This document shows, piece by piece, positions 32,167 to 61,847 of a stretch of DNA of 64,000 nucleotides (within the stretch, counting starts at the first letter, position 1; every line of letters begins with the position of its first letter). This DNA is from an uncultured Gammaproteobacteria bacterium (GTDB lineage Bacteria; Patescibacteriota; Microgenomatia; Daviesbacterales; UBA10151), in assembly GCA_964396715.1 (NCBI GenBank), contig CAYNFQ010000001.1:117873-181872 (forward strand), given 5' to 3'. A program made the position numbers and the translations under genes. The notes beneath the pieces are model-generated. The model searched no databases. It worked only from the letters and a program-made list of their open reading frames with translations, and was not told the origin of the DNA.

Positions 32167-32226
32167 ATAAGTTCCAAAATTGCATTATGTAAGCAGAACA
32201 ACTGTATTATACAATATATAGATCTT

Positions 32227-34377
32227 ATGATGGATATTAAAAAAAATTTGAGTCCACTAATTATTTTAATAGTTTGTTTGATCCTTATTTTTGTATGGTT
32301 TAACAAGGGTTTGCTTTTTGCAGGTGGAGAGGGGGGAATCCCTTTTTATAACCTTTCAAAAACTGCAGAGCGCATTTCTTATCTTTGGATAGATGAAGAG
32401 GCTGGTTATCCGGGTGTAGGCAATCTAACAGAAGTCCCTTACTATGCATTGCTTAAGATCCCTTTGCAGTTTGGTGTGCCTTCAAATCTGGTTCAGGCTT
32501 TTCATTTTTTCTTGGTTATGTTTACCGGCGTGGTTTCTGTATATTTTCTGATAAAAATAACCATAGAGGAAGAACTTAAAAAAAATCTTAATTTTTGGGG
32601 CGCAAAATATATATCTTTGATTGGCGCTATCTTCTATTTATTAAATCCTTTTTCCATGTCGCAGGTTTTTGGCAGGAGTTTAAATATTCAATATCTTTCT
32701 TTTGTATTGCTGCCTTTATTTCTCCTGCTGTATATCAGGGGACTTAAAACAAGAAATCTAATATATGGCTTTTTAAGCTTGATACCTTCTTTTATCTTCT
32801 CAGGAGCGTATGGCAGTTTTGGATATATACCAGCACTTTGGTTTCTGGTATTTCTTTATACTGTATTTTACCTTTGGAAAAATAGAAGTAAAAGAGAAAT
32901 TATTTTTGGTATTTTTTTCTTATCTTTTGTTTTTCTCAGCTGGATCATGGTAAATCTTTTTTGGATTATTCCGGTTTTTAAATTAGGGGGACAACAACTG
33001 GCAGCTTCCCTTAATGCGACAGAGGAAAATCTTGGGTCTTTAAGAGGGGTGAGTAAGCATTTTTCTCTGCCTATTCTTATCAGGCTTCTTCATACAGGAT
33101 ATTTCTATGAGGATTTATACGGGATTGTTTATTCAAGTTTATTCTTTGTGATTATAAGTTGGATAATTCCTGTAGTGTCATTTTTTTCATTAACCCTTTT
33201 TAAGAAAGTAACCAGTTTTAAATTCTACCTGACTTTATTTGTAATTTCCCTTTTTATATCTTTAGGTTCTAATTTCCCAACAGGCTGGTTATTTGAATTC
33301 ATATTTGAAGCTGTACCTGCATTTCAAATGTACAGGAATCCTTATGAAAAATTTGGGCTGATTTTTCTTTTAGCCTATACCCCATTTTTTGCATTGGGGA
33401 CTCTGGTTTTGTCAGAAAAATTAGCTGCCTTTTTTAAACATCAACGTTTAAAGTATTTTTGGGTGGTGCTCATTCTTTTTCTGGTGAGTGGCATTTTTGT
33501 TTGGCCAATGTGGAAGGGAATTTTTGCAGGAGGTTACAGGATCAATACCTGGATAAACGTACCTGATTATTATAAAAATGCTAACGATTGGTTAAATCAG
33601 CAGGATGGAGATTTTAGATTGTTGCATCTTCCTTTAATTCCAGGAGATGGCATAAGGTATAAGTGGGATCATCCATATCAAGGCATTGAACCGTCTGAAT
33701 TTTTATTTGATAGAGCATCAATAGCTCAAAATATTCCTTTTAACAAACAATATTACAATGTTTTACTTCAGCGCATTGGGATTTTCCAGCCAAATATTTT
33801 TGGTTCTGATCCTGATTTGACAAATTCGGAATTTAAATCCGAAAAATTAGGGGAAGAGTTAGCGAAATTAAATATTCGATATATAGTTTTACATAATGAT
33901 ATTGATGTTAGTTTCGGTGGTTTCAAAACACCACAAGAAACTGCAGTCTATTTGGCCAAAGATAAAAAAATAATCAAAGTTAAAAGTTTCGGTCAGCTGG
34001 ATATATATGAGGTGGAAATTCCCCAAAATATTCAAATTATTTATTCTCCATCAACTACTTTAATCTATGAAAAAATTAACCCCGCTTTTTATAAAGTAAA
34101 AGTTACTGATGAAGTTAAACCTTTTAATTTGAATTTTCTTATGTCTTACAATTCAAATTGGCACGCTGTTATTGATGGTGAAGTAATACAGGATCATGTA
34201 AAATTATTTTCGTATGGAAATTCCTGGGAAGTTAACAAAACCGGCAGTTTTGAAATAGATTTAGTTTATAAACCGCAGGAACTGGTTAAACAGGGACAAA
34301 TAATTTCAACGTTTTCGTTTATAGTAATATCTCTGCTGATGGTCTGTTACCAAATTATATGGAAAAAAAGAATTTAA
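32227..34377 (+). CDS. Large polytopic membrane protein, family B (N-terminal multi-TM GT-C-like domain + C-terminal extracytoplasmic beta-rich domain)
   Basis: Shares WFxxGLxFxGGxxGxxFxN, RNPYEKFG, LLHLPLIPGDGIRYKWDHPYQGIEPSEF, IRYIVLHND motifs with the giants at 38636, 42468 and 46347. Confidence 0.65.
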   Translation: MMDIKKNLSPLIILIVCLILIFVWFNKGLLFAGGEGGIPFYNLSKTAERISYLWIDEEAGYPGVGNLTEVPYYALLKIPLQFGVPSNLVQAFHFFLVMFTGVVSVYFLIKITIEEELKKNLNFWGAKYISLIGAIFYLLNPFSMSQVFGRSLNIQYLSFVLLPLFLLLYIRGLKTRNLIYGFLSLIPSFIFSGAYGSFGYIPALWFLVFLYTVFYLWKNRSKREIIFGIFFLSFVFLSWIMVNLFWIIPVFKLGGQQLAASLNATEENLGSLRGVSKHFSLPILIRLLHTGYFYEDLYGIVYSSLFFVIISWIIPVVSFFSLTLFKKVTSFKFYLTLFVISLFISLGSNFPTGWLFEFIFEAVPAFQMYRNPYEKFGLIFLLAYTPFFALGTLVLSEKLAAFFKHQRLKYFWVVLILFLVSGIFVWPMWKGIFAGGYRINTWINVPDYYKNANDWLNQQDGDFRLLHLPLIPGDGIRYKWDHPYQGIEPSEFLFDRASIAQNIPFNKQYYNVLLQRIGIFQPNIFGSDPDLTNSEFKSEKLGEELAKLNIRYIVLHNDIDVSFGGFKTPQETAVYLAKDKKIIKVKSFGQLDIYEVEIPQNIQIIYSPSTTLIYEKINPAFYKVKVTDEVKPFNLNFLMSYNSNWHAVIDGEVIQDHVKLFSYGNSWEVNKTGSFEIDLVYKPQELVKQGQIISTFSFIVISLLMVCYQIIWKKRI

Positions 34378-35528
34378 AAATTTATATTTTTGCCCTAGCT
34401 GCAACAGGTTCGGGAATTTCTGGTTCTGACAGGATTTTTATTGAATTTACTAGAAAGTGGAGTAAAGAAGTTCCAGTGATAGTCTATCTATGGAGGGAGG
34501 GTTATGAGATGTGCCAAAGGCAAAATCTGGGAATATCAAATATTGAATATCGAATATCGAATATGAAATCATGGAGACCTTTTAGATTTCTAATAAATTA
34601 CATAGTTAGAATTATAGAGGGGATAAAACTAGGGACTATCTTAAAATTAAAAAATACTCCCCAAATCATTATTTATTCAGCTTCGGAATTTTGGATGGAT
34701 TCATTGCTGGCATTTTTATTAAAATTGCGCTTTCCCAAGGTTAAATGGGCTGCAGCATGGTATCAAACTGCACCTAGTCCGCTAAAAGGATTTTCCGGGT
34801 CTTTAATTTATTGGTTAGTTCAACTTCCAATAAAACCTCTGATTGATAGATTTGCTAACTTTGTTTTAGTAAATAATGATATGGAGAAGAAGGTTTTCAA
34901 GAGACTGAACAGAAAAAATAAAGCAATAGTTGTTTTGGGAGCAATAGATCTAGAGGGAATAAAAAAGTGGCAAAAGATTATCGGTAAAAAGAAGAAAATT
35001 TATGACGGAGTATTTCAAGGCAGGTTTCATCCGCAAAAAGGAGTTTTGGAGCTTATTGGTATATGGAAGAAGGTGGTTGATAAGAAACCGGATGCAAAAT
35101 TGGTAATGATAGGGGATGGGCCACTGATGGAAAATGTCAAATTACAAATTACAAATTACAAATTAAACAAAAACATCATTCTCAAAGGGTATATGTTTGA
35201 TGGGGAAGAGAAATATAAGATATTTGCCCAAAGCAAAATTGTGGTGCATCCTGCCATCTTTGATTCCGGCGGTATGGCATCGGCCGAGGCAATGGCTTTT
35301 GGATTGCCTTGCGTGGGTTTTAATTTAAAATCATACATTTACTATTACCCTTCAGGAATGGAAAAGGTTGATGAAGGAAATACCGAAGCTTTTGCCAAAA
35401 AAATACTTGAGCTTCTAAGTAATAAAACTTTATATGAAAAAGTATCCAAAGAAACATTGTATCTAATTAATTATAAATGGTCATGGGAATATAGGGCTCG
35501 TCAAATACTACAAGCAGTGTTAGAATAA
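34359..35528 (+). CDS. GT4 (GT-B) glycosyltransferase
   Basis: C-terminal GGMASAEAMAFGLPCVGF GT4 signature. Confidence 0.75.
   Translation: MEKKNLKIYIFALAATGSGISGSDRIFIEFTRKWSKEVPVIVYLWREGYEMCQRQNLGISNIEYRISNMKSWRPFRFLINYIVRIIEGIKLGTILKLKNTPQIIIYSASEFWMDSLLAFLLKLRFPKVKWAAAWYQTAPSPLKGFSGSLIYWLVQLPIKPLIDRFANFVLVNNDMEKKVFKRLNRKNKAIVVLGAIDLEGIKKWQKIIGKKKKIYDGVFQGRFHPQKGVLELIGIWKKVVDKKPDAKLVMIGDGPLMENVKLQITNYKLNKNIILKGYMFDGEEKYKIFAQSKIVVHPAIFDSGGMASAEAMAFGLPCVGFNLKSYIYYYPSGMEKVDEGNTEAFAKKILELLSNKTLYEKVSKETLYLINYKWSWEYRARQILQAVLE
34531..34572. repeat. Imperfect heptanucleotide tandem repeat (GAATATC)x6 within GT4 CDS (encodes GISNIEYRISNMKS)
   Basis: gaatatc aaatatt gaatatc gaatatc gaatatg aaatcat. 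Confidence 0.85.
35138..35165. repeat. Perfect heptanucleotide tandem repeat (CAAATTA)x4 within the same GT4 CDS (encodes KLQITNYKL)
   Basis: caaattacaaattacaaattacaaatta. Confidence 0.9.
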
Positions 35529-38000: not shown

Positions 38001-38682
38001 TCACCGGCATGAATTTGAAAAAGATTCACAGAGCAAGTTTAAATTATTTTTAATGGCTATATCCGATCCATTGTCTTGGGTTGTTGATAAATCGGTAAGG
38101 TCAATATTGGATTTGGGGTGCGGTCAGGGCAAGCCAATGGCTATGATCAAACTTTGGCACAAAATAGATACTGCGGTGGGAGTTGAGCTATATAAGCCGT
38201 ATATTAAACTTGCAAGAAAGCAGAAGTTACACGATAAATATATTATTGGAGATGTAAGAGAGGTTAATTTTAAACCAAAATCTTACGATTTAGTTTTAGC
38301 CTCCCATGTTCTAGAGCATCTTCCTAAAAAGGATGCATGGAAACTTTTGAGCAAGATGGAAAAAATTGCCAAGATGCAAATTATTGTGGCAACGCCGATC
38401 GGAGCAATTTATCAACCTGCTTTTGATGATAATAAACTCCAGCAACACAAATCACATTTTCTGCCGGAAGAATTTGAAAAAAGAGGTTACAAGGTGATCA
38501 AATACGGTTTAAGATTTCTTTTGGATGAACATTCCGGGGGATTAGTTTACAAATTTAGCAATCCTACTGTTAAAAAAATTATCTATATTGTTAATTTTTT
38601 AATGACTCCTCTTTACTATCTATTCCCTCAAATTTGTGATTATTCGTTTGTGGCCTACAGGAGTATTAATAGTGAAAATTAA
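37990..38682 (+). CDS. Class I SAM methyltransferase, tandem paralog of the C-terminal domain of 36444..38000
   Basis: ILDLGCGQGKP...ASHVLEHLPKKDAWKLL...FLPEEFEKRGYKVIKYGLRFLL collinear with fused domain; start at Met13 of ORF. Confidence 0.7.
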   Translation: MKHNHRHEFEKDSQSKFKLFLMAISDPLSWVVDKSVRSILDLGCGQGKPMAMIKLWHKIDTAVGVELYKPYIKLARKQKLHDKYIIGDVREVNFKPKSYDLVLASHVLEHLPKKDAWKLLSKMEKIAKMQIIVATPIGAIYQPAFDDNKLQQHKSHFLPEEFEKRGYKVIKYGLRFLLDEHSGGLVYKFSNPTVKKIIYIVNFLMTPLYYLFPQICDYSFVAYRSINSEN

Positions 38683-41600
38683 AGATTACCTCTCAGTTGC
38701 CTTTTTATTTATTTTGTCAACTATACTTATTTTGATTTGGTTTAAGCAAGGACTGGCATTTGGCGGAGGAGACGTAGGTTTGCCCACTTTTAACCCCCAA
38801 AGGATTTTTCAATTTATCAGTCATATCTGGTGGGAAGCATCAGCCCCGGGTTTTCCAAGACCCCAGGGAATAACGGGTACCCCCTTTTATTTTTTGTTGT
38901 CCTTATTACAAAAAATAATTCCCTCATATGTATTAATGCAGGCTTTAATCTTCTGGTTGGTACTTTTTTTTATGGGGCTGGGTATGTACCTGGTTTCAAA
39001 AAGCGTTTTCGGAAAAGAAAAAGTGCTAATACCTCTTGTCTCCAGCATACTGTATCTCGTTAATCCTTATATGCAAATTTCAGTTTGGCATAGGTTTGTG
39101 CACACCACTTTTTTTCTGGCATCGACACTGCCTTTTTTGTTTATTTTTTGGCGCAGGTGGATTACATCAGGAAAACGATTAGATCTTCTTATTTTTTCTT
39201 TAATTAATGTTTTAGGTGCAATAATTTTCAGCACTTTGGGGTTTGTGATCAGTTTGTGGGTTTTTTTATTTTTTACCTCTTTTTTTATTATTTTTATACC
39301 GCGAAAAAGTTTATTCGAGGCAAAAACAATTATAGTAAGATCTACTGCGGGATTTATTGTTTGGGTATTTATATCTTTGTGGTGGATTTTGCCCCTTTTT
39401 GCTACTTCGCAGGCGATTTTTTCCAGACAGCACTCTTCAGCTGAGAGTGTAACAAACTTAATTGTTTTAAGCAACCAAACGGCAATTCCCAATACCTTGC
39501 AGGGAATTAACCCTTTTTATTTGTTTGAAGAAAAAGAATGGGGGGAAATTTACAATCAGTGGTATTTTCTACTGATGCCATTCATCCTAGTTACCCTGGC
39601 AGTTTTGGGGTTTGTAAGGGGTTTGGGTGATCGCAAATTTATTTTTTGGAGCCTGCTTTTTTTAGTAAGCATAATTTTTGCCAAAGGGGCGGCAGCCCCT
39701 TTTGGAGGCGGTTTTGTATATTTGTTTAGTAAATTTTTTGTATTGGGAGTTTTGAGAAATCCGTTTGAGAAAATAGGTATTTTTATACCCTTTACTTACG
39801 CCATCCTTATCCCGATAGGCTTGATCACTTTTTTTAAATTTGCCAAAAAAGCGAAACTTCAATATATAGTTATGCCATTTGTATCTATATTGCTGATTTT
39901 GATTTTAGTCATTTGGCATTGGCCATTTTGGCAGGGAAAATTATTCGGAAGCCAATATAGTCCGCCCGAAGTTCAGGTACCGGATTATTATTTAAAGGCA
40001 GATAATTGGATAAAGGAACAAGGAAAGGATGGAAGAATTCTTCACCTGCCGCTGGTTGTCGGTGAAGCAACTGCGTATAAGTGGGAGTATGGCTACAGAG
40101 GTGTTGAGCCGAGCCAGGTTTTTTTCACTTCAAATCCTTCTCTGTCCCAGGGGTTTAATTTAAGCTTTTTGGATGATGCGCTAGCAACGCTGCAGATATT
40201 TTTAAACAGGAGTGATTTTGTTGATGAAGATCAAATCAGGCAACTTCTTAAAATTTTTGGGATCCGATACATTGTTTTACATCTTGATATGGATCCAACA
40301 TATATGGACGTATACAACCCAATAAGGCTTAAAAAACAATTGGGTCAGCTTAAGTTTCTAAAAAAACAGAATGAATTCGGCAAACTTATTATATATGAGG
40401 TTCTGGAAGAAAACCCTATCATTTTTACAGCTTCATCTTTTGATTATTTACTAATGGGAGAGAAAAATCAATTTTGGCCCTGGTTAATTAAGAATAAAAA
40501 CAATCAACTTATCTCAGGGATAGACTTGGATGAAGATTCGATTCATACGGATCATTCGATAGTAGTTGCTTCTTTCTCATTTGATACACCGCCCTCAAAT
40601 CCCGTGGAAGAAAAAATAGAATTGGATCAGCTTCCATCTGTCCGGATACTACCAGGATCCCCCTTTTATTTTTTAATAAGGCTGAAAGAGTACTTTGAAA
40701 CATATTCTGTTTTTGGGAAAGAACGTATTTCAAAACAAATCCTCTTTGCCAGTAAAAGGCTTGTGGAAGCGGTTAAGATAAAGGAACTTGATAAAAACAA
40801 CCAAATCTCGGCAATTTTAACAGATTATTCAGACCTTTTGGACAAGCTGAAACTATCATTAAAAGGGGCATTTCCCTATGAAAAATCTGCAGTTGATGCA
40901 ATATTTGCAAGACATAGTGTTATTTTAGATTCACTTACAGATTCCGCTGTTACAGGTAGTGAGAAGGAAATTGTAGTAAAAGCTAAAGAAAAATTGGCCG
41001 AAGATTTGAGTTTATGGGGTTTGCGGCCTCTTATCGCTTTTAATAAAGAAACATCATTGTATAACAGAAGAGTATTTACATTTCAGGTTTCGAAAACAGG
41101 GGATTATGAGGTTTTATTCGGCCTGGATAAAGGAAATAGCTTTGATGAAATTTTTGATATAGCTTTGGATGGAAAACCGATCTTAAAAAATAATCCGACT
41201 GATCTGGAACAACCGGTCAAAATAATAAGTTTCGGCAAAATATATTTAGAGCCAGGTTATCATGAATTAAGTTACCGTTCCAAAAAAATTCCCGTAAATA
41301 TTTTATCGCTTGATAAGTGGTTTAAGTCGGAAAAAGGCGAGTTTAGCGGAAACTCAGATGAGATGAGTATAAGCAGTGAGATAAATGAAACAGCGAGCAT
41401 GCAATTGCCTATGAAAGATTTTATTGCCGGGAATACTTATATACTTCGATTTGAATACTGGGTTCAAAAAGGCAAGGGGCCGATAGTGCAAGTACTTTCG
41501 GATAACGACCCAATAATAAAAGGTAAAAGAGAGATGAAAGCAGATAAGCAGTTTGCCGCCGAAACCTATAACCGTTATTGGCAAAATGCGTTTGTGAGTT

Positions 41601-42139
41601 TTGAACCCCGTTTGTCAGCCGATGATACTTTAATTGAGATATCGGTTGAACCCTGGAATGATTGTGAGATAATCAGCCCGATTCGTTCGACTTGCAAGAT
41701 TAAGAAATTTAGAAAACAATTTGACAGAAAAAGCACATTGATTGTCAAAAATGTTGTCCTTGAAAGAATTTCCAGGTCTGAGATTTTTCTTAAAACCTCA
41801 AATAGCAAAATTAAAGAGTCTACAAATTCAGGCAGGGTTGAATATGCTAGGGAAAACCCTTCTTTTGTCAGGGGGAAATTAAAAATCGATAAACCCCAAG
41901 TTTTGGTATTCGCTGAAACTTTCGATAAGGGTTGGAAGTTAGATTTATTTAAAGAGGGTAGAAAAATTAATCCTCAGGAGCATTTATTGGTAAACGGTTA
42001 TGCTAATGGTTGGTTGGTAAAGGAAGCTGGAGAATATGAATTCTCTATCAATTTTGACGCCCAGAAACTAGTCAACATAGGCGGTATAATATCTATGATA
42101 ACTTTGGGGGGATTACTATTATGGCTTATCAGAAAATAA
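38636..42139 (+). CDS. Giant (1167 aa) polytopic membrane protein, family B; N-terminal ~570-aa multi-TM GT-C-like module and ~600-aa C-terminal extracytoplasmic domain
   Basis: WFKQGLAFGGGDVGLPTFNPQRI...WWEASAPGFPRPQG, VLRNPFEKIG, ILHLPLVVGEATAYKWEYGYRGVEPS, IRYIVLHLDMD, C-terminal NGYANGW; alternative GTG start at 38672. Confidence 0.7.
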   Translation: MIIRLWPTGVLIVKIKDYLSVAFLFILSTILILIWFKQGLAFGGGDVGLPTFNPQRIFQFISHIWWEASAPGFPRPQGITGTPFYFLLSLLQKIIPSYVLMQALIFWLVLFFMGLGMYLVSKSVFGKEKVLIPLVSSILYLVNPYMQISVWHRFVHTTFFLASTLPFLFIFWRRWITSGKRLDLLIFSLINVLGAIIFSTLGFVISLWVFLFFTSFFIIFIPRKSLFEAKTIIVRSTAGFIVWVFISLWWILPLFATSQAIFSRQHSSAESVTNLIVLSNQTAIPNTLQGINPFYLFEEKEWGEIYNQWYFLLMPFILVTLAVLGFVRGLGDRKFIFWSLLFLVSIIFAKGAAAPFGGGFVYLFSKFFVLGVLRNPFEKIGIFIPFTYAILIPIGLITFFKFAKKAKLQYIVMPFVSILLILILVIWHWPFWQGKLFGSQYSPPEVQVPDYYLKADNWIKEQGKDGRILHLPLVVGEATAYKWEYGYRGVEPSQVFFTSNPSLSQGFNLSFLDDALATLQIFLNRSDFVDEDQIRQLLKIFGIRYIVLHLDMDPTYMDVYNPIRLKKQLGQLKFLKKQNEFGKLIIYEVLEENPIIFTASSFDYLLMGEKNQFWPWLIKNKNNQLISGIDLDEDSIHTDHSIVVASFSFDTPPSNPVEEKIELDQLPSVRILPGSPFYFLIRLKEYFETYSVFGKERISKQILFASKRLVEAVKIKELDKNNQISAILTDYSDLLDKLKLSLKGAFPYEKSAVDAIFARHSVILDSLTDSAVTGSEKEIVVKAKEKLAEDLSLWGLRPLIAFNKETSLYNRRVFTFQVSKTGDYEVLFGLDKGNSFDEIFDIALDGKPILKNNPTDLEQPVKIISFGKIYLEPGYHELSYRSKKIPVNILSLDKWFKSEKGEFSGNSDEMSISSEINETASMQLPMKDFIAGNTYILRFEYWVQKGKGPIVQVLSDNDPIIKGKREMKADKQFAAETYNRYWQNAFVSFEPRLSADDTLIEISVEPWNDCEIISPIRSTCKIKKFRKQFDRKSTLIVKNVVLERISRSEIFLKTSNSKIKESTNSGRVEYARENPSFVRGKLKIDKPQVLVFAETFDKGWKLDLFKEGRKINPQEHLLVNGYANGWLVKEAGEYEFSINFDAQKLVNIGGIISMITLGGLLLWLIRK

Positions 42140-42483
42140 AATCAGTATCCATAAGGTTGTTTATTTTGTTTCTTTCAATAGTATTGATTTATTATACTAA
42201 TGGTAATGCCGGCAGTGAATCTTTTGGAAATATTCAATCTGCAATTTTGTCAGCAGGTTTGATTGTTGCAGTGTATTTACCTGCTAAGAGGCCTTTCATA
42301 CTTCTCTTTGCCATTTTAATGTGGTCTGTTATGATAGGATTTTACCTGGTAGAAGCTCGGGATTATGCTTACTTTTTCGGCAGTATAGGTTTTGGGATAA
42401 TATTTCTGGTAATCTTAACTTATGTTCCGGAACTTTTAAAAACAGGTTATATAGCCGATTTTCAAAAATGGTTCAAAGATTAA
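42121..42483 (+). CDS. Small (120 aa) 3-4 TM membrane protein following giant B1
   Basis: Hydrophobic; C-terminal GSIGFGIIFLVILTYVPELLKTGY resembles GSLGIGILAILIFSYFGDFVKRGF of 45935..46264. Confidence 0.5.
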   Translation: MAYQKIKSVSIRLFILFLSIVLIYYTNGNAGSESFGNIQSAILSAGLIVAVYLPAKRPFILLFAILMWSVMIGFYLVEARDYAYFFGSIGFGIIFLVILTYVPELLKTGYIADFQKWFKD

Positions 42484-45400
42484 CAAAATTTTTTTTCAAT
42501 AATAATTTGAACAGTCATTTTTTTGCGTTATTTACGTTTTTTTTACTCAGTGTATTTCTTGTTTTCAGCTGGTTTAGACAAGGCTTAATTTACGGGGGAG
42601 GAGATGTTGGTTTGCAGACCTTTAATCCCCAAAGGATACTGGAAATCTCCCAATTTATCTGGTGGGAAGCAACCGCCCCCGGTATTCCGGTTCCCCAGGG
42701 TTTAACCGCCATACCATTCAATTTTGCCTTTTCTATTTTACAATCCATAGGTTTTAGCCCGTTTTTACTTCAGGCAAGCTTGTTTTTTCTTATACTTTTC
42801 TTCTGTGGTCTGGGAATGTATTTTCTTATTTTATTTTTGTTTGGGGACAGGTATAAAATTTATGCAATTTTGGCGGGATTATTCTATATGGTTAATCCAT
42901 ACATGATGATTTCGGTTTGGCACAGGTTTGTCCACTCAACGTTCTTCTTTATTTCGGCTCTGCCTTTTTTAACTATTTTCTGGCTGAAGTGGATCAGGAA
43001 CAAAAATCCGATATCACTCCTGATTTTTTTATTAATTAACCTTATTTCCTTGTATGCTTTCGGGACGATTGCCTATATTCTTACCCTCTGGCTTTTCCTT
43101 TTTCTAATCACTATTCCTGAAATAATTTTTTCCTGGCAAGGCCTAAAAAATTTTAAGAAAATATTGACGGTTTTTTTAGTAGGTTTCTTTTTTTGGGTTT
43201 TGACAAATGCCTGGTGGTTGGTGCCTATATTTAAAATCTCTCCGACTGCTTTGTCGGAGCAACACAGTAATGAAGAAACTTTATCTACACTAATAAATAT
43301 AAGCAGACAAACTATACTTCCCTACTCATTACAAATGATCAATCCTTTCTATTTATTTTACCAGCTGGATTTGGGGAAAAGTTACCAGAATGTTTTTATC
43401 CGTGTCCTCCCTTGGATTTTTGTTTCAGTTATTTTTATCGGATTAATAAGGGCTTTGTTCAATAAAGACATGGCAAGATGGACTCTGGTTTATCTTGCCG
43501 TAATATTTTTTGCCAAAGGCGCGGCTTCCCCCTGGGGTTTTATATATATCTTTGCCTTAAAATATTTTTTCCCCCTCGGGGTGCTGCGGAACCCGTTTGA
43601 AAAAATTGGTATTCTGTTACCTCTGGTAAGCACAATTTTATTTATCATTGGATTAAAATTTGTTTATGAAAGCCTAAGACATAAATTCAGCGTGAGGGTT
43701 GCAGCAGTTAGCCTGGTAGTTGTTTTTGGATCTGTTTTTATTTTTTGTTTGCCCTTATTCGGAGGGAGAATATTTGGTAGGTTTGATAAACCGGAATTTG
43801 TAAGTGTACCGCAATCTTATAAGGATGCGGATAATTGGATTAAATCCGACTATGAAAAGAATAAAAATCAAAATCCAGGCAAGATTTTACATTTGCCCCT
43901 GACAAGAGGTGAAAGCATTAATTATAATTGGGAATATGGCTACAGCGGACTGGAATCCAGTGCATTATTCTTTACAGCCGCCCCTTCTATTTCTCACGGG
44001 TTCAATCTCAGGAGAACTGATGATTCTTTGACAACGCTTTATTATTCGCTTCGAAATAGTCATTTATTTGATCAGAATATTACAAAAAGACTCTTGAGTG
44101 ATTTTAATATTGCCTACATTGTGTTGCATAAAGATGTGAAATGGCAGGGTTCTGATTTGTACAATCCCGCAGAGACAGAGGAGGTTTTAAATAAATTAAA
44201 TTTTATTAAACTTGAAAAAACCTTTGGAGATTTAATGATTTATAAAGTATTGGAAGAGAATTTTAATCCGAAGATTTTCATAAGCGGAAACTATCACATA
44301 ATTTATCCTCCCAATACTTTTAGCGTACAGCCCTGGATAGAAGCGTCAGGTAGTTCCATCATAACTTCCGTAGATATTGAAGATAATCGAAAATTGGAGG
44401 AATTTTCCCGAAGCACTACAATTTTTTCTAAAAGCTCCTTTGTTTATACAGAGGCATCATCTTCTTCAATTGTGTCAACTATAAATGCATTGGTTTCCAA
44501 TCCGGCAAGTAAAGACTTATGGTTAGATTCATTAATTAAAATCAGGCCGATTTTGAAACAAAATGGTGAGATCCAGGCAGAAGAATTTAGCAGTCAAATA
44601 ATTTATGCCAGTGAAAAAATTTTAAAAATAATGAGAGGATTTGCTTTAGAGAAAAATGATCCTTCCCCAAAAGAGGTAGACGATTATGGTCAAATAGTTA
44701 AAAACCTCTTTTCTGCCAATACCTACAGTCCCAGACTACAACTTTACGCTAACAGTACACAGCTCAGTCAGATATTCCAGATTCATTTATACATTCTCAA
44801 AATAATTTCTGAAATAACCCAATCAGAAACCAGAAACAATTTGATAAGGGTTTTAGATCTGTTAAAAGAAAATTTATCCAGAAATAATCTTATTCCCGAT
44901 TCTTCGGAGATGCAGGCTATCTCATCAAGAAGAGATGTTTATAAATTTGAAGTGCCTTATGATTCGGATTACAAAATTATCCTTGCATTTTCCAAGGACA
45001 AATCTATTTATCAAAATAAATTAGATAAGCTATTTTTTATCCTTGACGGTAAACCACTTAATTTTAAGGGAGAGGTAGAAAATGACCTAATTTCATTTGG
45101 TCCTGTATCCATTGCAAAGGGGTCACACATGATTAGTTTTCCGGTCCTTTTATCGGATAATTTATCAGTTATCGCTAATTTTATTAAGGGGGGGGAGGTT
45201 AATTTATCAGATGATGGTAATTTTTATCTTAAGGGGGCTGACACTAATTTAAGCTTTCTAGAAAGTAGAATAAACAATACTTTTGGACAAGACATATTTA
45301 AAGTAAACTTCGATGTAAAAGTAGAAAAAGGAAACGGTTTTAATTTTCAACTTTTGCAGGATACGGACACCATTGATCAAACCGGCCAGCCGAATTTGGC

Positions 45401-45938
45401 AATAAATCAGAAGATTTTCCAACCGGAGGGAACAGATTGGCTAGAGTATGATTTTTTTCTGCCGCCTCTCAGGTTTAATACGGATACTGTTGCCATAAGA
45501 TTTGTAGCTAATTCTCCCATAAAAGTAAGAAATTTAAAAATTGAGAGAGTATTTAACGGAGACGTTTTTTTAAGGGATATTAAATCTTTTAATAAGATAA
45601 ATGATAAAGGAGCGGGTAAGGTAGATTTCTATCAAAAAAACCCTGCCCTTTACAGAGGTAAGATTTATTTGGATAAACCATCCTTTATAATATTTTCAGA
45701 ATCTTTTCATCCCGGTTGGAAATTAGTTTTATCTAAACAGGGCAAAGATTATATTCCTACCATTCATACAATGGCAAACCTTTATGCAAATGCCTGGTAT
45801 ATTGATAAAGACGGCGAATATGATTTTAAGCTGGAATTTGAACCTGAAAGAATAGTGAAAATTGGCTCTCTATTGGCATTAGCAGGTTATTTGAGTCTTA
45901 TAATCTATATTATCTTAAAAAATAGAAAAAATAGATGA
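42468..45938 (+). CDS. Giant (~1156 aa) polytopic membrane protein, family B paralog
   Basis: WFRQGLIYGGGDVGLQTFNPQRI...WWEATAPGIPVPQG, VLRNPFEKIG, ILHLPLTRGESINYNWEYGYSGLESS, IAYIVLHKDVKW, LYANAW; start at Met50 of ORF (overlaps 3' end of small protein gene). Confidence 0.7.
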   Translation: MVQRLTKFFFNNNLNSHFFALFTFFLLSVFLVFSWFRQGLIYGGGDVGLQTFNPQRILEISQFIWWEATAPGIPVPQGLTAIPFNFAFSILQSIGFSPFLLQASLFFLILFFCGLGMYFLILFLFGDRYKIYAILAGLFYMVNPYMMISVWHRFVHSTFFFISALPFLTIFWLKWIRNKNPISLLIFLLINLISLYAFGTIAYILTLWLFLFLITIPEIIFSWQGLKNFKKILTVFLVGFFFWVLTNAWWLVPIFKISPTALSEQHSNEETLSTLINISRQTILPYSLQMINPFYLFYQLDLGKSYQNVFIRVLPWIFVSVIFIGLIRALFNKDMARWTLVYLAVIFFAKGAASPWGFIYIFALKYFFPLGVLRNPFEKIGILLPLVSTILFIIGLKFVYESLRHKFSVRVAAVSLVVVFGSVFIFCLPLFGGRIFGRFDKPEFVSVPQSYKDADNWIKSDYEKNKNQNPGKILHLPLTRGESINYNWEYGYSGLESSALFFTAAPSISHGFNLRRTDDSLTTLYYSLRNSHLFDQNITKRLLSDFNIAYIVLHKDVKWQGSDLYNPAETEEVLNKLNFIKLEKTFGDLMIYKVLEENFNPKIFISGNYHIIYPPNTFSVQPWIEASGSSIITSVDIEDNRKLEEFSRSTTIFSKSSFVYTEASSSSIVSTINALVSNPASKDLWLDSLIKIRPILKQNGEIQAEEFSSQIIYASEKILKIMRGFALEKNDPSPKEVDDYGQIVKNLFSANTYSPRLQLYANSTQLSQIFQIHLYILKIISEITQSETRNNLIRVLDLLKENLSRNNLIPDSSEMQAISSRRDVYKFEVPYDSDYKIILAFSKDKSIYQNKLDKLFFILDGKPLNFKGEVENDLISFGPVSIAKGSHMISFPVLLSDNLSVIANFIKGGEVNLSDDGNFYLKGADTNLSFLESRINNTFGQDIFKVNFDVKVEKGNGFNFQLLQDTDTIDQTGQPNLAINQKIFQPEGTDWLEYDFFLPPLRFNTDTVAIRFVANSPIKVRNLKIERVFNGDVFLRDIKSFNKINDKGAGKVDFYQKNPALYRGKIYLDKPSFIIFSESFHPGWKLVLSKQGKDYIPTIHTMANLYANAWYIDKDGEYDFKLEFEPERIVKIGSLLALAGYLSLIIYIILKNRKNR

Positions 45939-46350: not shown

Positions 46351-49031
46351 AGAAAAGAATTGCCTTAATGTTTTTTCTGATCTTACCCTTTTTTTGGATT
46401 TTTTGGTTACCTGGCCCTAGGGTGGCAACAGATTATCACCTGACCACAAAGGAAACCCAGCTGGATAACCTGTTTCCCTGGATCTGGAGAGAAACCAGTG
46501 TGGCAGATGGTTTGGGGGAATATACTGCTATTACTCTTTGGTCACAGCCGCTTCATTCATTTTTCGCCAGTCTATATCAGATTAATTTACCTTTTTCATT
46601 TTTGACAAAGCTGCTTGTCGGATTAATTATCCTGCTTAGTATTATTTCCATGCTCAAGCTTTTAGATTATTTGAAAATTAAAAGTCCGTATCAAGAAGTT
46701 GGTGTAATTTTTTACATATTAAATACATTTTTTTTACTTCTCCTTGACGGTGGACAGTTGGCCTTGACACTTGCTTACGCAGTTTTTCCTCTCTCGGTTT
46801 ATTGTTTTCTGCTACTCATGCAAACAGCAAATTTGAAAAGAAGACTTTTATTTGCTTTCAGCGTCCTGGCAATTTCCATATTTGATATCAGGATTGTTTA
46901 TTTGCTGTTTATGGTCTGTGCCATTTTTGTCCTGTTTAAATTTTTTTTATCACCTTCAAAAAAAGAAGTTGTTTTAGTTTTTAAAGAGGTTTTACTATCA
47001 GCAATATTTACCATACTGATAATTTTTCCCTTTCATGCTTACTGGATACTACCTGCTTTAGTTGTTAAGACACCACAGTTGCCGCAGACTTATGAGAGAG
47101 TTTCCCAGATAGATTTTTTAAGCTTTTCCACACTGCTTCATTCCCTAATTTTGAATCAGCCCCACTGGTATAAAAATATCTTTGGTAAAATATCAGAGGT
47201 AAGTTTTGAGTTTTTGCTGATTCCCGCAACAGCTTTTATCTCTTTAGCCCTAGTTAGGAGAAATACCCAGGTTGCTTTCTGGTCACTTATTGCAATCTTG
47301 GGAATTTTTCTCTCCAAGGGTTCAAATCCACCCCTGCCTCAAATTTATTCTTATCTTTTTGCCAGCATTCCCGGATTTTCAATTTTCCGTGATCCTGCCA
47401 AATTTTATTTTCTAATTTGTATCGCGTACACAATATTAATAGGATTTTCTCTTCAGGCGATGGGTAAGTTAGCAAAAATTATCCCATTTGTTTTTCTTTT
47501 GTATATAGTCTGGCTTGCCAGGCCGGTATATCTTGGACAAATGAGCGGACTATTTTCCTTCCCATCTTTTGAAAAAGAATTTAATTTACTATCAGAGGTA
47601 ATAAAAGAAGACAAACAATTCTCCCGGGTTTTCTGGATTCCCAATTCAGCACCTTTAGGTTATGTTGGTCCCAATCACCCGCAAGTTGAAGCTTCCAGGT
47701 TATCTAAAAAAAGGCCTTTTGCCGCAGCAACAGTAGGAACTTATGAGACATTTAATTTCTTAAGAGAGGCACCTTTCATGGGAGAAATTTTTGATGTGTC
47801 GGGGATTGGATATATTGCATATCCCTATATAGACAAACAAAGGGAGGAGGCGGATTTTGATAAAGAAAAATATTACTACACATTTTTAAATCAACTGTCC
47901 AAACTTCCCTGGGTTTCCAAAGTTGAATATTCGGGTATGCCGCTGCTTAAAGTCAAAAATCACCAGGATAAATTTTTTGTTACGGGAAATACCTGGTGGA
48001 TAATAGGGGATGATAGTTTATATAAAGAGTCAACCAAAAGTGCTACGCTTAAATTATCCAAAAACAGTTTGATTTTTACCGAAGAGCATGCGGGTTTGGG
48101 GAAAAGACTGGATGAGGTTTCGGATGCCAAAATTATACTGAATAAAAAAAGCAACATAGACCTTGCAGCAAGTTTTATTGATGCCTCAAAACTTTTTTTT
48201 CCGGCAAAAAGCCTTAATTTCAGTCCCGATGAATCAGGTTGGTGGAAAAGGGAGGCGGTGGATTTGGTTTGGTGGAGAGATTTTTTACAAAACAAATACG
48301 GGATAGATAATAAGGATTTTGATTTAGGAGGAGGATGGGCGGTGGGGGAAGGGTATTCAAAGTTCAAAGTTCAAAGTTCAAAGTTCAAAAAGGACAATAT
48401 TTTGCTGGCAAGAGTAATGGAAAGTTCCAGAAGTGGGAATTTGAAATTTTATCAAGACAATCAACTAATCGGGGAAGTGGGAACTAAAATTAACGGAGAT
48501 GCCAATGTTAGATGGTTTGAAGTAGGGGAGTTAAGTGGAAATGGTAGCGGGATTGCTATAGAGTCCACAGGAGATATTAATGTGGTTAATACATTGGCAG
48601 TTTTGGACAAAAACGACTGGGATAGTTTAAAGGATAAAGCCGATAAGCTGCAGGGGAGAGTGGTAAGTTTTGATGACAAGAGTATACAAAATGTAACCGG
48701 CTCCATGGTTTCTTACCGGAGGATAAACCCCACTAAATATATTGTAAATATAGACGGTTTAACAAAGCCGTCATTGTTAGTATTTTCCCAAAATTATGAT
48801 AGTTTATGGAAGATGAGTGGTCAGACTCCCCTGCCACGTTCAGCTAACATGAACGTGGCTCTGCCGGTGTATAGTTTGCTGAATGGATTTAGAGTGGAAC
48901 AGGACGGAGAGTATATTGTTGAATTTGAGGCGCAAAAGTATGTTTATTTAGGGTTAGCAATCTCCATAATGACTTTGCTTACAATAACTTTTCTACTCAT
49001 CTTAGGCACCAGGAGATCATCTAGGCTATAA
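46347..49031 (+). CDS. Giant (894 aa) polytopic membrane protein, divergent family B paralog
   Basis: N-terminal multi-TM, FRDPAKFYFL (aligns to RNPFEKIG), C-terminal LLNGF...DGEYIVEFEAQKYV like DGEYEFSINFDAQK of B1. Confidence 0.65.
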   Translation: MKKRIALMFFLILPFFWIFWLPGPRVATDYHLTTKETQLDNLFPWIWRETSVADGLGEYTAITLWSQPLHSFFASLYQINLPFSFLTKLLVGLIILLSIISMLKLLDYLKIKSPYQEVGVIFYILNTFFLLLLDGGQLALTLAYAVFPLSVYCFLLLMQTANLKRRLLFAFSVLAISIFDIRIVYLLFMVCAIFVLFKFFLSPSKKEVVLVFKEVLLSAIFTILIIFPFHAYWILPALVVKTPQLPQTYERVSQIDFLSFSTLLHSLILNQPHWYKNIFGKISEVSFEFLLIPATAFISLALVRRNTQVAFWSLIAILGIFLSKGSNPPLPQIYSYLFASIPGFSIFRDPAKFYFLICIAYTILIGFSLQAMGKLAKIIPFVFLLYIVWLARPVYLGQMSGLFSFPSFEKEFNLLSEVIKEDKQFSRVFWIPNSAPLGYVGPNHPQVEASRLSKKRPFAAATVGTYETFNFLREAPFMGEIFDVSGIGYIAYPYIDKQREEADFDKEKYYYTFLNQLSKLPWVSKVEYSGMPLLKVKNHQDKFFVTGNTWWIIGDDSLYKESTKSATLKLSKNSLIFTEEHAGLGKRLDEVSDAKIILNKKSNIDLAASFIDASKLFFPAKSLNFSPDESGWWKREAVDLVWWRDFLQNKYGIDNKDFDLGGGWAVGEGYSKFKVQSSKFKKDNILLARVMESSRSGNLKFYQDNQLIGEVGTKINGDANVRWFEVGELSGNGSGIAIESTGDINVVNTLAVLDKNDWDSLKDKADKLQGRVVSFDDKSIQNVTGSMVSYRRINPTKYIVNIDGLTKPSLLVFSQNYDSLWKMSGQTPLPRSANMNVALPVYSLLNGFRVEQDGEYIVEFEAQKYVYLGLAISIMTLLTITFLLILGTRRSSRL
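48356..48390. repeat. Heptanucleotide tandem repeat (TTCAAAG)x4 + 1 imperfect inside giant B3 CDS (encodes SKFKVQSSKFKK)
   Basis: ttcaaagttcaaagttcaaagttcaaagttcaaaa; same CAAAGTT unit as 13593-13627. Confidence 0.9.
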
Positions 49032-51096: not shown

Positions 51097-51788
51097 GTGA
51101 TCCTTCTTCTTTTCAAACATTGGAATCAATGAGTCAGGCTGTCTGGTATAACCAGTGGACTTTAAAACTCTTTGCCAAATATTTAAAAGGAGATATCCTG
51201 GAGGTTGGTTGCGGAATAGGAAATTTTACCAAATCTTTACTAAAATACGGTAAAGTTTGGGCCGTAGATATTAATAGAATATATATAAGCAATATTAAAA
51301 AAGAACAGGGGGATAAAGTGCGGGTTGGGTTTGGTGATATTGCAAAAGGAAAATATTTTTTTGGTAAGCGGAATTTTGATAGCATCGTTTGCCTAAATGT
51401 TCTGGAACATATTGAGAAAGACGATACGGCATTAAAAAATTTATTTGATCTTTTACAAAACAACGGAACTTTAATTCTACTAGTGCCGGCCCACCCTTTT
51501 CTTTATGGCGAAATTGACAGATCAATAGGTCACTTCAGAAGGTATTCTAAAAAAGAATTATTAAACATAATGGAAAGTATAGGCTTTAATATTATTGAAT
51601 CCTGGAGAATAAACTTTTTGGGGGCAATAGGTTGGTTTATTGCGGGAAGGATTTTGAACGAAAATAAAGTTGAAAATGAAAAAATAAAAATATTTAATTT
51701 ATTGGCACCCTTTTTTTTGGCGATTGAAAATATCATTGAACCGCCAATCGGGACTTCTATACTGGTAGTTGCGCAGAAAAAAATATGA
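51093..51788 (+). CDS. Class I SAM-dependent methyltransferase
   Basis: ILEVGCGIGNFTKSL motif I, LNVLEHIEKDD. Confidence 0.75.
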   Translation: MSDPSSFQTLESMSQAVWYNQWTLKLFAKYLKGDILEVGCGIGNFTKSLLKYGKVWAVDINRIYISNIKKEQGDKVRVGFGDIAKGKYFFGKRNFDSIVCLNVLEHIEKDDTALKNLFDLLQNNGTLILLVPAHPFLYGEIDRSIGHFRRYSKKELLNIMESIGFNIIESWRINFLGAIGWFIAGRILNENKVENEKIKIFNLLAPFFLAIENIIEPPIGTSILVVAQKKI

Positions 51789-52525
51789 AAACGCTTTCCA
51801 TTATTATTCCTGTATATAACGAGGAAAAAACTGTTGGAGTATTATTAGGAAAGGTAGTAGATGCGAAATTACCCGCAGGTTTCAAAAAAGAAATAATTAT
51901 TATTGATGATGGATCAACCGATAAAACTGAATCAGTTTTATCGAAATGTCAAATGTCAAACCTGTCTGCCGTCAGGCAAGATGTCAAATGTCAAATTTTT
52001 AGACATAATACAAATCAGGGTAAAGGTGCTGCCATAAGAACAGGTTTAAAGCATGTGACAGGAGACTATATTATTATCCAGGATGCGGACTTGGAATATA
52101 ATCCTGCTGATTATAAAGAGTTGCTTAAGCCGATTTTGGAAAAAAAGGCTAAGGTAGTATACGGCACCAGGTTAAAAAACTATCCATTAAGGTTGTGGGG
52201 GGAAAATAAGACAATACTGCCCTTGCATTTAATAGCAAATAAGTTTTTAACTTTTATGACAAATATGCTTTATGGAAGTAAACTCTCTGATATGGAAACC
52301 TGTTATAAATTATTGACAAAAAATGTCCTAACTGGTTTTGATTTGCAATCAAACAGATTTGAAATTGAACCGGAGATAACCGCCAAAATATTAAAAAGAG
52401 GATTTTCAATTTTAGAAATCCCGATCAAAGTTACTCCCAGAACACACAAAGAAGGTAAAAAAATCAGCTGGAAAGATGGATTTAGGGCTGTATTTAGCTT
52501 AGTTAAATATCGATTTTATGACTAG
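51785..52525 (+). CDS. GT2 polyprenyl-phosphate sugar synthase (DPM1/ArnC-like), paralog of 7739..8455, carrying an in-frame repeat insertion
   Basis: LSIIIPVYNEEKTV...IIIDDGSTDKT, QDADLEYNP; insertion CQMSNLSAVRQDVKCQI absent from paralog. Confidence 0.75.
   Translation: MKTLSIIIPVYNEEKTVGVLLGKVVDAKLPAGFKKEIIIIDDGSTDKTESVLSKCQMSNLSAVRQDVKCQIFRHNTNQGKGAAIRTGLKHVTGDYIIIQDADLEYNPADYKELLKPILEKKAKVVYGTRLKNYPLRLWGENKTILPLHLIANKFLTFMTNMLYGSKLSDMETCYKLLTKNVLTGFDLQSNRFEIEPEITAKILKRGFSILEIPIKVTPRTHKEGKKISWKDGFRAVFSLVKYRFYD
51944..51994. repeat. Composite element inside GT2 CDS: (AAATGTC)x2 - 20-nt core cctgtctgccgtcaggcaag - (ATGTCAA)x2; the core is the reverse complement (1 mismatch) of the 28-nt repeat unit at 61240-61312
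   Basis: Read directly; reverse complement of cttgcctgtcggcagacagg (61255-61274) is cctgtctgccgacaggcaag. Confidence 0.8.
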
Positions 52526-60591: not shown

Positions 60592-61209
60592 ATGTATAAT
60601 CTTTACATGAGTATTTTTACAGACAGGATGGGAAGGGGTTTAACGGCCGCGCAGGCTTTGGGGAAAATCCTGGGAAGGATTTATAATTGGGTTTTGGATA
60701 TTGAACTGCTTGTGGTGACCTGGGCAGGTTTGGTTCCCCTGCATTCATTTCGCCTTTTTATTTACTTTTTGGCTGGTATGAAGATAGGCAAAGATTCAAG
60801 GATTCATATTGGCGCCCGCTTTTTTTATCCGGCAAATATTACGATTGGAAATGGGACTATTATTGGAGATAACGCATTTTTGGATGGGAGGGATAAACTT
60901 ACTATTGGTGATCATGTGGATATTGCCTCGCAAGTTTTGATCTATAACAGTGAGCATGATATCAATTCAGATGACTTTCACGCGGTAAATGGGATTGTGG
61001 AGATTGGCGATTATGTTTTTATCGGTCCCAGGGTAATCATACTGCCGGGAGTAAAGATAGGCAGGGGAGCAGTTGTTGCGGCAGGAGCTGTGGTGACAAA
61101 AGATGTAGAAAATTTCGCCATAGTCGGAGGAGTGCCGGCAGAAGTGATAGGCGAACGAAAGATTCACAACTTACATTATCAGCTTGGGAGGGCACGCTTA
61201 TTCCAATGA
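60592..61209 (+). CDS. Hexapeptide-repeat (LbH) O-acetyltransferase, WcaF/WbbJ-like
   Basis: [59 protein letters not shown] hexapeptide repeats. Confidence 0.8.
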
Positions 61210-61847
61210 AGAAATTTCCAATCTCTCGACTTCGCTCGAGACAGGTTTTCAATCTTGCCTGTCGGCAGACAGGTTTTCAATCTTGCCTGTCGGCAGACAG
61301 GTTTTCAATTTTTTTACTGTTCTCTTTTTTACTGTTTATTTATATGGTTTGGCCTTCACCTTCTGCCATAGCGGATTTTAAGTCTCTGCCAAATTCTCAA
61401 AAATCGCGCCTGGAGGGTGACACAATACAAATCCCCAATGTTGCCGCTTATTTTTCCAATCACTACCGTGAATTTGTGGTGCCTTTTTATGCAAAAAATT
61501 ACCGGTTAAAGGTGAATTTGCCAATTCCCCCGCTCAGATTAAATCACCCGCCCGAATTTTCCTGGATTACAATAAAAAAACATACGGATTCCACCTATCT
61601 TGAGGAGTTGGTTTATCCTTTAAGAGATTCGTTGTTTGTAAACGGATATGAGCCATTTTATCCTGATGGGTCACCTAAATTTTGGGGGTCAACAAAATTT
61701 GAGGTTGACGGAAATCTTTGGGAGACCAAAACTACCTTGAGGTTTTACCACTCGAGTATTTGGATCAGACTGCTTGTTTGGTTTGGAATAACTTTATCCA
61801 TTTTTCTGCTATATAAAATGACTAAAAAAATTATATTTAATAAATGA
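61206..61847 (+). CDS. Hypothetical bitopic membrane protein (N- and C-terminal TM segments, central extracytoplasmic domain); 5' coding region contains the 28-nt tandem repeat
   Basis: ATGA overlap with acetyltransferase stop; residues 12-36 encoded by the repeats in shifting frames; no family recognised. Confidence 0.45.
61240..61312. repeat. Tandem direct repeat, 28-nt unit gacaggttttcaatcttgcctgtcggca x2.6; adjacent units form hairpin CCTGTC-ggca-GACAGG
   Basis: Read directly; two perfect copies (61240-61267, 61268-61295) plus 17-nt partial third. Confidence 0.9.

Follow-up and report, generated by a model that had tools for sequence, protein, structure and literature searches.

A 28-nt tandem hairpin array in a Candidatus Daviesbacteria membrane protein gene as a probable passenger insertion of very small dispersed repeats

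The DNA analysed here, referred to as the window, is a stretch of 64,000 nucleotides (nt) of contig CAYNFQ010000001.1 (assembly GCA_964396715.1, positions 117,873 to 181,872) from Candidatus Daviesbacteria. A gene for a membrane protein near the end of the window carries a perfect tandem repeat with hairpin-forming units within its 5′ coding region. Comparison with orthologues shows that the array is an insertion and not native coding sequence. The most likely account is that very small dispersed hairpin repeats, resembling the small dispersed repeats (SDRs) of cyanobacteria, came in as passengers and were then duplicated locally, rather than that the array is a dedicated switch. The observations that carry this interpretation are the empty sites in orthologues, the in-frame status of the insert, a further core elsewhere in the window, the link to heptamer arrays, the exchange of one hairpin word for another at the same position, the recurrence across phyla and the lack of a linked transposase.

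A preliminary description of this DNA had reported a 28-nt tandem repeat in the 5′ coding region of a membrane protein gene, and the repeat was recovered with Tandem Repeats Finder at 61239-61309 (period 28, 2.5 copies, 100% matches, 0 indels). It is the highest-scoring tandem repeat of the whole window, of which the G+C content is 35.7%. With up to 3 mismatches allowed, the 28-mer was found in the window at positions 61240 and 61268 only, and 0 times in 100 shuffles. Each 28-nt unit holds GACAGG...CCTGTC, and each unit junction forms the hairpin CCTGTC-GGCA-GACAGG that had been described. Folded as DNA, the 73-nt array gives -13.9 kcal/mol (z = -4.5). The array occupies codons 12-36 of the open reading frame (ORF) 61206-61847, and the described ATGA coupling of this ORF to the upstream acetyltransferase gene is correct. 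The same 4-nt overlap of the two genes is also present at orthologous loci. Identical units abut head to tail and have no spacers, in agreement with the earlier statement that the array is not a CRISPR.

The product of the host gene has hydrophobic segments at its N- and C-terminus, and no match to it was obtained in Pfam, NCBIfam or PDB. Homologues were retrieved (n=649), and among the matches listed nearly all are 179-185 aa long and cover ~83% of the query. The homologues start with MK(K)(F)SIFLLF, and the window protein has 29 additional residues between MKKF and SIFLLF (protein alignment A1). The two closest orthologues, L122 and L125, come from Logan assemblies and have the gene order acetyltransferase-host gene-Wzy as in the window. 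In both of them the site is empty and reads ATGAAGAAATTTT|CAATTTTTTTA (DNA alignment A2). The preliminary description had named a unique unit and an N-terminal peptide conserved in homologues as observations that would speak against it. Neither was found: the peptide is absent from homologues, and the core of the unit recurs at a second site of the window and at at least 120 further loci. Separately, invariant motifs are present in the host protein family (P0002-P0120, ~180 aa).

The insert is laid out as TTTCCAAT, a 23-nt hairpin word, TTTTCAAT, a 20-nt core, TTTTCAAT, a further core and TTTTCAAT, after which the native sequence follows (Table 1). The repeating module is not the 28-nt unit as such, which had been assumed earlier, but a core of ~20-21 nt combined with a 7-8-nt local repeat, TTTTCAAT. 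Three modules are present, the first of them with a different hairpin word, and their heptamer and word sizes are 7+24, 7+21 and 7+21 nt. The words (24+21+21 nt) and three extra heptamers (21 nt) add up to 87 nt, and the conserved ATG is thus kept in frame. It is the diverged third module upstream, at 61215-61245, that brings the whole insertion to this in-frame length. The T-to-C variant in TTTCCAAT is common to the P0003 lineage (L123, L124). The family to which the first hairpin word belongs (word 2 in Table 1) gives LDFARD when read in another frame, and in a Patescibacteria metagenome-assembled genome (MAG; L117) this word adjoins a core.

ATG 61206 is the only start codon that keeps the first hydrophobic segment. 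This, together with the conservation of the ATGA overlap in orthologues, argues that the insert is translated. The resulting N-terminal tail in front of the first hydrophobic segment has 33 residues, with 7 K/R and 1 D/E. Judged by its position, this cytoplasmic tail is likely to be permissive, so that the insert would be tolerated there. A lipoprotein signal formed by 'NLAC' was considered and rejected, as the motif precedes the hydrophobic segment and makes a poor lipobox. For the host gene itself the result is mundane: an in-frame repeat insertion in a tolerant N-terminal tail, which leaves the ORF intact.

In the P0003 lineage a different insertion, of 45 nt, is seen at the same spot of the orthologous gene. 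It consists of the heptamer-like repeats TTTCCAA TTTTCAG TTTCCAA followed by a CTGCC-TTT-GGCAG hairpin, and the identical protein is encoded on 9 contigs. The presence of a different insertion at the same place indicates that the site is a recurrent target.

The core is also found within a GT2 glycosyltransferase gene (51785-52525) of the same window, where it breaks an ATGTCAA heptamer array. This locus is referred to as site B, and the locus in the membrane protein gene as site A. In an inverted-repeat search (hit I21), the reverse complement of the 25-mer ATCTTGCCTGTCGGCAGACAGGTTT was found at 51958-51982 with 1 mismatch, where 0 were expected; the core itself lies at 51961-51980 on the opposite strand. 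Orthologues of the GT2 gene were compared by protein alignment A3 and DNA alignment A4. P0124 (L136) has neither the array nor the core. P0122 (L133; protein 80% identical) has the array alone, AAATGTC x4, without the core, and the window has the array with the 21-nt ACCTGTCTGCCGTCAGGCAAG. In P0129 (L134) the array holds TCCCTCGACCTCGCTCGGGACAAG, which belongs to the word family of module 1 at site A, and in P0130 (L135) it holds AAACTGCCTTCGGCAGGACA, the same word as in the P0003 insertion in the host-gene orthologue. Hairpin words that fill the array in GT2 orthologues read LDLARDK, QTAFGRT and ALLREAGRA. The words reappear in another glycosyltransferase family, GT4 (34359-35528), where homologues have PFDSAQGK, PSTSLGTR or PSTVAQGD at a heptamer-coded spot. 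Thus, several GC-rich hairpin words of 21-24 nt repeatedly fill heptamer arrays in Daviesbacteria genes, and always as whole codons.

Table 1. Features of the window at and around the two core-bearing sites, and other heptamer arrays
Feature	Position	Strand	Remarks
Upstream gene, WcaF-like hexapeptide acetyltransferase	60592..61209	+	TGA 61207-61209 overlaps host ATG 61206 (ATGA)
Host gene, membrane protein (no assigned family)	61206..61847	+	213 aa here, ~180 aa in homologues; conserved in Microgenomates/Daviesbacteria
In-frame insertion relative to orthologues	61215..61301	+	87 nt = 29 codons; placement ambiguous by 8 nt (61223-61309 equivalent)
TTTCCAAT, first local 7-8-nt repeat	61215..61222	+	slightly diverged; from native codons AAA TTT TCA ATT
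Hairpin word 2, CTCTCGACTTCGCTCGAGACAGG	61223..61245	+	23 nt; stem TCTCGA/TCGAGA; second small-repeat family
TTTTCAAT, local repeat copy 2	61246..61253	+	sequence parse
Core copy 1, CTTGCCTGTCGGCAGACAGG	61254..61273	+	hairpin CCTGTC-GGCA-GACAGG; reads LACRQTG
TTTTCAAT, local repeat copy 3	61274..61281	+	sequence parse
Core copy 2, identical to copy 1	61282..61301	+	other frame, reads SCLSADR; terminator-like match with T-rich native sequence after it
TTTTCAAT, final copy	61302..61309	+	runs on into native coding sequence (FSIFLLF...)
ATGTCAA heptamer array broken by core, in GT2 gene	51944..51996	+	tandem-repeat and orthologue comparison
21-nt insertion with core, CTTGCCTGACGGCAGACAGG	51960..51980	-	reverse orientation, 1 mismatch; encodes NLSAVRQ
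GTGATAA heptamer array	4226-4255		4-5 copies
AAAGTGC heptamer array	13601-13631		4-5 copies
GAATATC heptamer array	34531-34569		4-5 copies
CAAATTA heptamer array	35138-35165		4-5 copies
TTCAAAG heptamer array	48356-48389		4-5 copies

An exact scan for CTTGCCTG[T/A]CGGCAGACAGG was carried out over 185,579 species genomes (one genome per species, 596 Gb). The core was matched at at least 120 loci (L002-L121), where ~2 are expected by chance from the arithmetic for a 20-mer with one two-fold position. Letter for letter, the same 20-mer is present in more than 10 bacterial phyla. The carriers include Bacteroidota, among them the cultured Terrimonas pollutisoli, Terrimonas sp. R1 and Maribacter arcticus DSM 23546 as well as Aureibaculum. 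Further carriers belong to Ignavibacteriota, Chlorobiota, Planctomycetota (including Scalindua), Omnitrophota, Thermodesulfovibrionia, Stahlbacteria, Gammaproteobacteria, Bdellovibrionales, Treponema, Bacillota/Clostridia and Anaerolineae. Within Patescibacteria, the core was found in Portnoy-, Andersen-, Shapiro-, Woese-, Davies-, Peri- and Saccharibacteria and in Paceibacter. Several matches lie on contigs of 158 kb to 1.77 Mb (Patescibacteria, Omnitrophota and others). Several genomes have 4-7 core copies among the matches listed, and at least 6 loci each were counted in Terrimonas sp. R1, Ignavibacteriaceae CAZEWJ01 and Flavobacteriaceae TAG_MAG_00011.

The surroundings of the core were compared with control positions. 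The flanks have the consensus (A)AT on the 5′ side and TT(T/C) on the 3′ side. Inverted 7-mers common to both flanks are seen at 19.5% of cores and at 2.8% of control positions, which indicates that the core lies in the loop of a larger hairpin. The corresponding values are 13.6% against 4.8% for direct 7-mers, and 3.4% against 0.8% for heptamer periodicity. Across loci the hairpin words show few variants, and a single T-A to T·G change was found when compensatory changes were looked for. Cores are under-represented in coding sequence: 45% of them lie within open stretches of at least 150 codons compared with 81% of random positions. The core has no stop codon in any of its six frames, and 33 of 121 cores are located inside long ORFs without breaking them, most commonly read as xLSADRQx. 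In a Planctomycetia MAG (L115:1180-1200), an insertion of exactly 21 nt, made up of the core and a T, adds LACRQTG in frame between ...KRVASY and FQKK. Judged by eye from the translation, we take the stretch that holds it to be the conserved N-terminal GIY-YIG motif of UvrC.

The core is embedded in heptamer or other repeats also in L094, L116, L128 and L130. Four 27-nt units made of GAKAAAG (GAGAAAG) and CYTGCCTGTCGGCAGACAGG are present in L130 (~1230-1340), and in L128 (4940-5010) and L129 (7310-7380) CCGACAA heptamers alternate with the core variants CTGCCTGGCCGGCAGACAGG and CTTGCCTGACGGCAGGCAGG. At other loci it sits within palindromes of the form CCTGCCxxCCGG...CAGGCAGG or within hairpins tcccgat...atcggga. 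Tandem arrays of the type X-core-X-core are rare, and none was found among the genome loci listed, at least 120 in number. The arrays in L128, L129 and L130 come from metagenomes, where a scan for core-spacer-core returned 4 loci, none of which is the locus studied here.

Some observations on nesting can be placed beside these data. In Terrimonas spp. (L020, L043, L047, L086, L091, L097) TTGGCCATATGGAAT...TTCGCCAA has the core in its loop; a conserved module of ~100 nt or more surrounds both and is located ~45 nt upstream of opposite-strand genes starting MKK..., and the core is multiplied there as part of a larger repeated 5′ region. In Flavobacteriaceae TAG_MAG_00011 (L032, L040, L073, L121) and in Ignavibacteria (L058, L069, L079, L112) it is nested in other widespread short words, for example ACTGAGCGTAGTCGAAGT repeats and GTCATTGCGAG-TCCCGAT...ATCGGGA-CGAAGCAATC hairpins, and several of the nested words in L040 appear to fall within a coding region. 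Such nesting suggests a larger repertoire of nested micro-repeats.

Genes in the vicinity of the core do not point to an associated enzyme. An all-against-all BLAST of 1,002 ORFs around 120 cores (loci up to ~8 kb) gave no recurrent transposase or protein family. The largest clusters, judged by inspection of sequences only, resemble a secreted protein with a type IX secretion system (T9SS)-type C-terminal tail, an M23-type peptidase, a response regulator and an oxidoreductase. No match to the core was obtained among PLSDB plasmids. GenBank phages gave only two chance matches with E = 7, in a portal gene, and IMG/VR gave 2 contigs with the core, but one of the two is a contig that also belongs to a Bacillota MAG. 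These near-empty searches show no sign of the core riding on known plasmids or phages. Nothing credible was found in Rfam around the array at E up to 10, and no family reached its gathering score in 18 core-bearing loci. A search of the searchable literature, itself incomplete, gave no description of the core, and sequence strings gave only unrelated primer matches.

The closest description of the array is that of Elhai's 'small dispersed repeats' embedded in heptamer arrays. The repeats SDR1-8 of Nostocaceae, attributed to work of Elhai et al. in 2008, are reportedly ~21-27 nt long, hairpin-forming and dispersed, often in tandem heptamers, nested, and present or absent at orthologous sites. 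Their size, the claim of their mobility, the site-specific insertion of SDR5 and the restriction to Nostocaceae are taken here from secondary citations. The insertions at site B and in L115 are exactly 21 nt and word 2 is 23-24 nt, and thus fall within the range of 21-27 nt. The core is dispersed in multiple copies (3 copies at two loci in the window, at least 120 loci elsewhere) and is embedded in heptamers or other repeats at site B, L094, L116, L128 and L130. Its presence or absence at orthologous sites is seen from the empty L122 and L125 at site A and L133 and L136 at site B. The host range is different, since the window is from Candidatus Daviesbacteria and the core is present in many phyla, and to our knowledge the identity of a single 20-mer across phyla is not part of the description of SDRs. 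As the host range differs, and as the comparison was one of behaviour and not of sequence, the element is called SDR-like and is not filed under SDR1-8.

Two further classes of repeats resemble the array in part. The short tandemly repeated repetitive (STRR) elements of heterocystous cyanobacteria consist of 7-bp units in tandem, which can fold into hairpins and can be intragenic. The window likewise has several heptamer arrays inside ORFs, with the core in one of them, but the taxon and the heptamer sequences differ, and STRRs correspond to the landing context and not to the hairpin word. Rickettsia palindromic elements (RPEs) are palindromic repeats that lie in frame in unrelated genes and add a peptide without destroying the protein (PMC10969869). 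RPEs are ~100-150 bp long and are known from one genus, whereas the unit here is 21-24 nt (7-8 codons) and crosses phyla.

A plausible course of events can be proposed from these comparisons. The A/T-rich stretch at the native start, ATG AAG AAA TTT TCA ATT TTT, would have been expanded to TTTTCAA(T), repeated in tandem with a period of 7-8 nt. Hairpin words rich in G+C and 21-24 nt long, one 'CTCGACTTCGCTCGAG' word and two identical cores CTTGCCTGTCGGCAGACAGG, would then have come to lie where the repeat units meet, at AAT|TTT. Slippage or unequal exchange between flanking TTTTCAAT copies could have produced the two perfect 28-nt units, as could a second insertion in an adjacent unit. The order of these events, the choice between duplication and re-insertion, and the neutrality of the outcome are suggested by the arrangement of the parts, and any mechanism of mobility is likewise conjectural; no agent that spreads the core was found.

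An alternative that we consider unlikely is an element of the repetitive extragenic palindromic (REP) or REPIN type (REP doublets forming hairpins), or a miniature inverted-repeat transposable element (MITE), moved in trans by a transposase encoded elsewhere, such as a REP-associated tyrosine transposase (RAYT), an IS200-IS605-like HUH enzyme or one of another insertion sequence (IS). Like REPs, bacterial interspersed mosaic elements (BIMEs) and REPIN-RAYT systems, which are 20-40-nt hairpin repeats in multiple copies and sometimes intragenic, the core is a short, GC-rich, multi-copy hairpin, often within larger inverted repeats. REPs inside genes and in several phyla have been documented (PMC3733652). 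However, the core CTTGCCTGTCGGCAGACAGG is without GTAG, CTAC, CGTC and GACG, and there is no inverted doublet at this locus. Both window loci are intragenic, as are the cores within long ORFs described above, which does not fit an extragenic location. The identity over more than 10 phyla is unlike species-specific REPs. No RAYT was seen nearby, and no transposase-like family or other neighbour recurs within ~8 kb of 120 cores. MITEs are ~50-500 bp long with terminal inverted repeats and a target duplication, whereas the units here are 20-24 nt and have no terminal inverted repeats. The direct TTTTCAAT copies do resemble target-site duplications, but they are better explained as copies of a pre-existing short tandem repeat, and the insertions at site B and in L115 (putative uvrC) are exactly 21 nt with no clear target duplication. 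The suggestion in the preliminary description of a small REP/MITE-like palindromic element is therefore retained for the small palindromic dispersed element but not for the REP/MITE affiliation, of which the defining features are absent.

The preliminary description had alternatively viewed the array as a phase-variation (contingency) locus. Gain or loss of a 28-nt unit by slippage would shift the frame between the conserved ATG and the protein body, and the membrane protein would be turned on or off within the population, together with the downstream Wzy/PMT genes through polarity. The array has properties expected of such a locus: it is a 5′ coding repeat just past the start codon, in a surface-related gene of a cell-envelope glycan locus, and its unit length is not divisible by 3. 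In a frame simulation, only 2 or 5 full units kept ATG 61206 in frame with the conserved body. With 1 unit TTG 61184 is in frame, and for 0 and 3 units an upstream start is lacking, apart from a TTG within the array in the 3-unit case. That the units are perfectly identical implies that the duplication is recent, and hence that the tract is able to change. The arithmetic of the frame shift was sound in principle, but the 'alternative ORF' 61184-61381 is merely an out-of-frame reading of the present array.

Contingency tracts that are known have many copies of short units. Here there are 2.5 copies of a long unit, itself built from a dispersed element, and no copy-number variant of this locus was found among the loci of the metagenome scan. 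Logan contigs from runs SRR12113422-31, retrieved by exact-protein look-ups with the flanking genes, are 100% identical to the window and end or start inside the array, the left contig ending at 61268 and the right ones starting at 61280-61284. In at least 6 runs the short-k assemblies (L139-L143, L145) break within it, where the called product is 187-188 aa and truncated. Such break positions are those of a de Bruijn loop and are expected only with at least 2 full units, so the tandem duplication is present in the reads of several runs. For the same reason these assemblies cannot show copy-number variation. The different insertion that the P0003 lineage has at this site is stable, as all 9 contigs give one and the same protein. 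At site B and at at least 120 other places the core is single and non-repeated, where switching is impossible, and the in-frame total is accounted for by the 21/24-nt words and 3 heptamers. A phase-variable switch is thus improbable, and neither the repeat nor the alternative-frame ORF should be annotated as a CRISPR or a switch.

A selected cis-regulatory structure in RNA or DNA, in which the hairpins, above all the last one with UUUUCAAUUUUUUU after it, act as an intrinsic attenuator or terminator or as a translation brake, is another explanation to which we give little credence. A terminator-like consensus is matched at 61285-61302 with a T-rich tail, and many cores elsewhere precede TT(T/C), between genes or near gene starts. 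The region 61190-61330 folds as RNA at -37.8 kcal/mol (z = -2.9). However, one unit as DNA gives -5.8 kcal/mol and the stem is only 6-7 bp, and the match is located 80 nt into an ORF that is part of an apparent operon. The T-tract belongs to the native coding sequence and is found in hairpin-free orthologues as well, and close orthologues with the same operon layout do not have the structure. The core occurs in both orientations and inside ORFs, and belongs to no Rfam family.

An artefact of assembly or sequencing, be it a repeat that was collapsed or expanded, a chimera or adapter sequence, is so improbable that it was rejected: this is a perfect repeat in a short-read MAG, and short-k assemblies break there, but both junctions are reproduced at 100% in several separate runs, the break positions call for at least 2 units in the reads, a single read is longer than the 71-nt array, the reading frame is preserved, and the core is present in cultured-isolate genomes and many independent projects.

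Some points weigh against a passenger insertion of SDR-like repeats. The fixed copy number of the array is an assumption, and its neutrality is suggested by the permissive position alone. The RNA structure and the terminator-like last hairpin may have an effect on downstream expression, although the data can be explained without one. The link to heptamer arrays, strong in Daviesbacteria, is modest over all cores (~3%, against 0.8% of controls). No enzyme was found that would account for the identity of the 20-mer across phyla, and essentially nothing on plasmids or phages.

What is left is one 20-mer identical over more than 10 phyla, which inserts as seven codons, has no linked enzyme and is almost absent from known plasmids and phages. 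Tentatively, and with less confidence than is attached to the passenger insertion, the ~21-nt hairpin CTTGCCTGTCGGCAGACAGG(T) might be regarded as a micro-mobile element that is or recently was active in more than 10 phyla without a linked transposase, that prefers AAT|TTT sites and heptamer arrays, and that adds exactly seven codons in genes. Together with the sister words CTCGACTTCGCTCGRGACA, CTGCCTTYGGCAG and others, it might then form a system of very small dispersed repeats that spans phyla and reshapes both proteins and intergenic hairpins, and the Daviesbacteria array would be a record of repeated insertion or duplication. In that case the core would be among the smallest known mobile elements. 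This 20-base sequence behaves like very small mobile repeats that have so far been described only in Nostoc-type cyanobacteria. If it is mobile, how DNA so short moves and crosses phylum boundaries becomes a directly testable question, and the cultured carriers Terrimonas sp. R1 and Maribacter arcticus DSM 23546 make experiments feasible. Mobility would also be a general way for bacterial proteins to gain 7-8 residues, and for spurious peptides such as LSADRQ, LACRQTG and LDFARDK to enter databases.

On either side of the host gene lie the WcaF-like acetyltransferase gene and a gene for a Wzy_C protein, an arrangement that is kept in Microgenomates. The five further heptamer arrays of the window (Table 1) are all located within long ORFs, namely an amine-oxidase-like gene, two GT4 glycosyltransferase genes and an 894-aa ORF without a Pfam match. 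The first array of the GT4 gene 34359-35528 is translated as ISNIEYRISNM, a peptide conserved in the family, and the CAAATTA array replaces sequence at unchanged length. Diverged repeat segments are shared by the large ORFs 32128-34377 (749 aa) and the adjacent 38636-42139 and 42321-45938 (1167 and 1205 aa), with 60-75% DNA identity and a constant spacing of 3832 nt. A large membrane or surface protein thus appears to be represented by tandem paralogues in these three ORFs.

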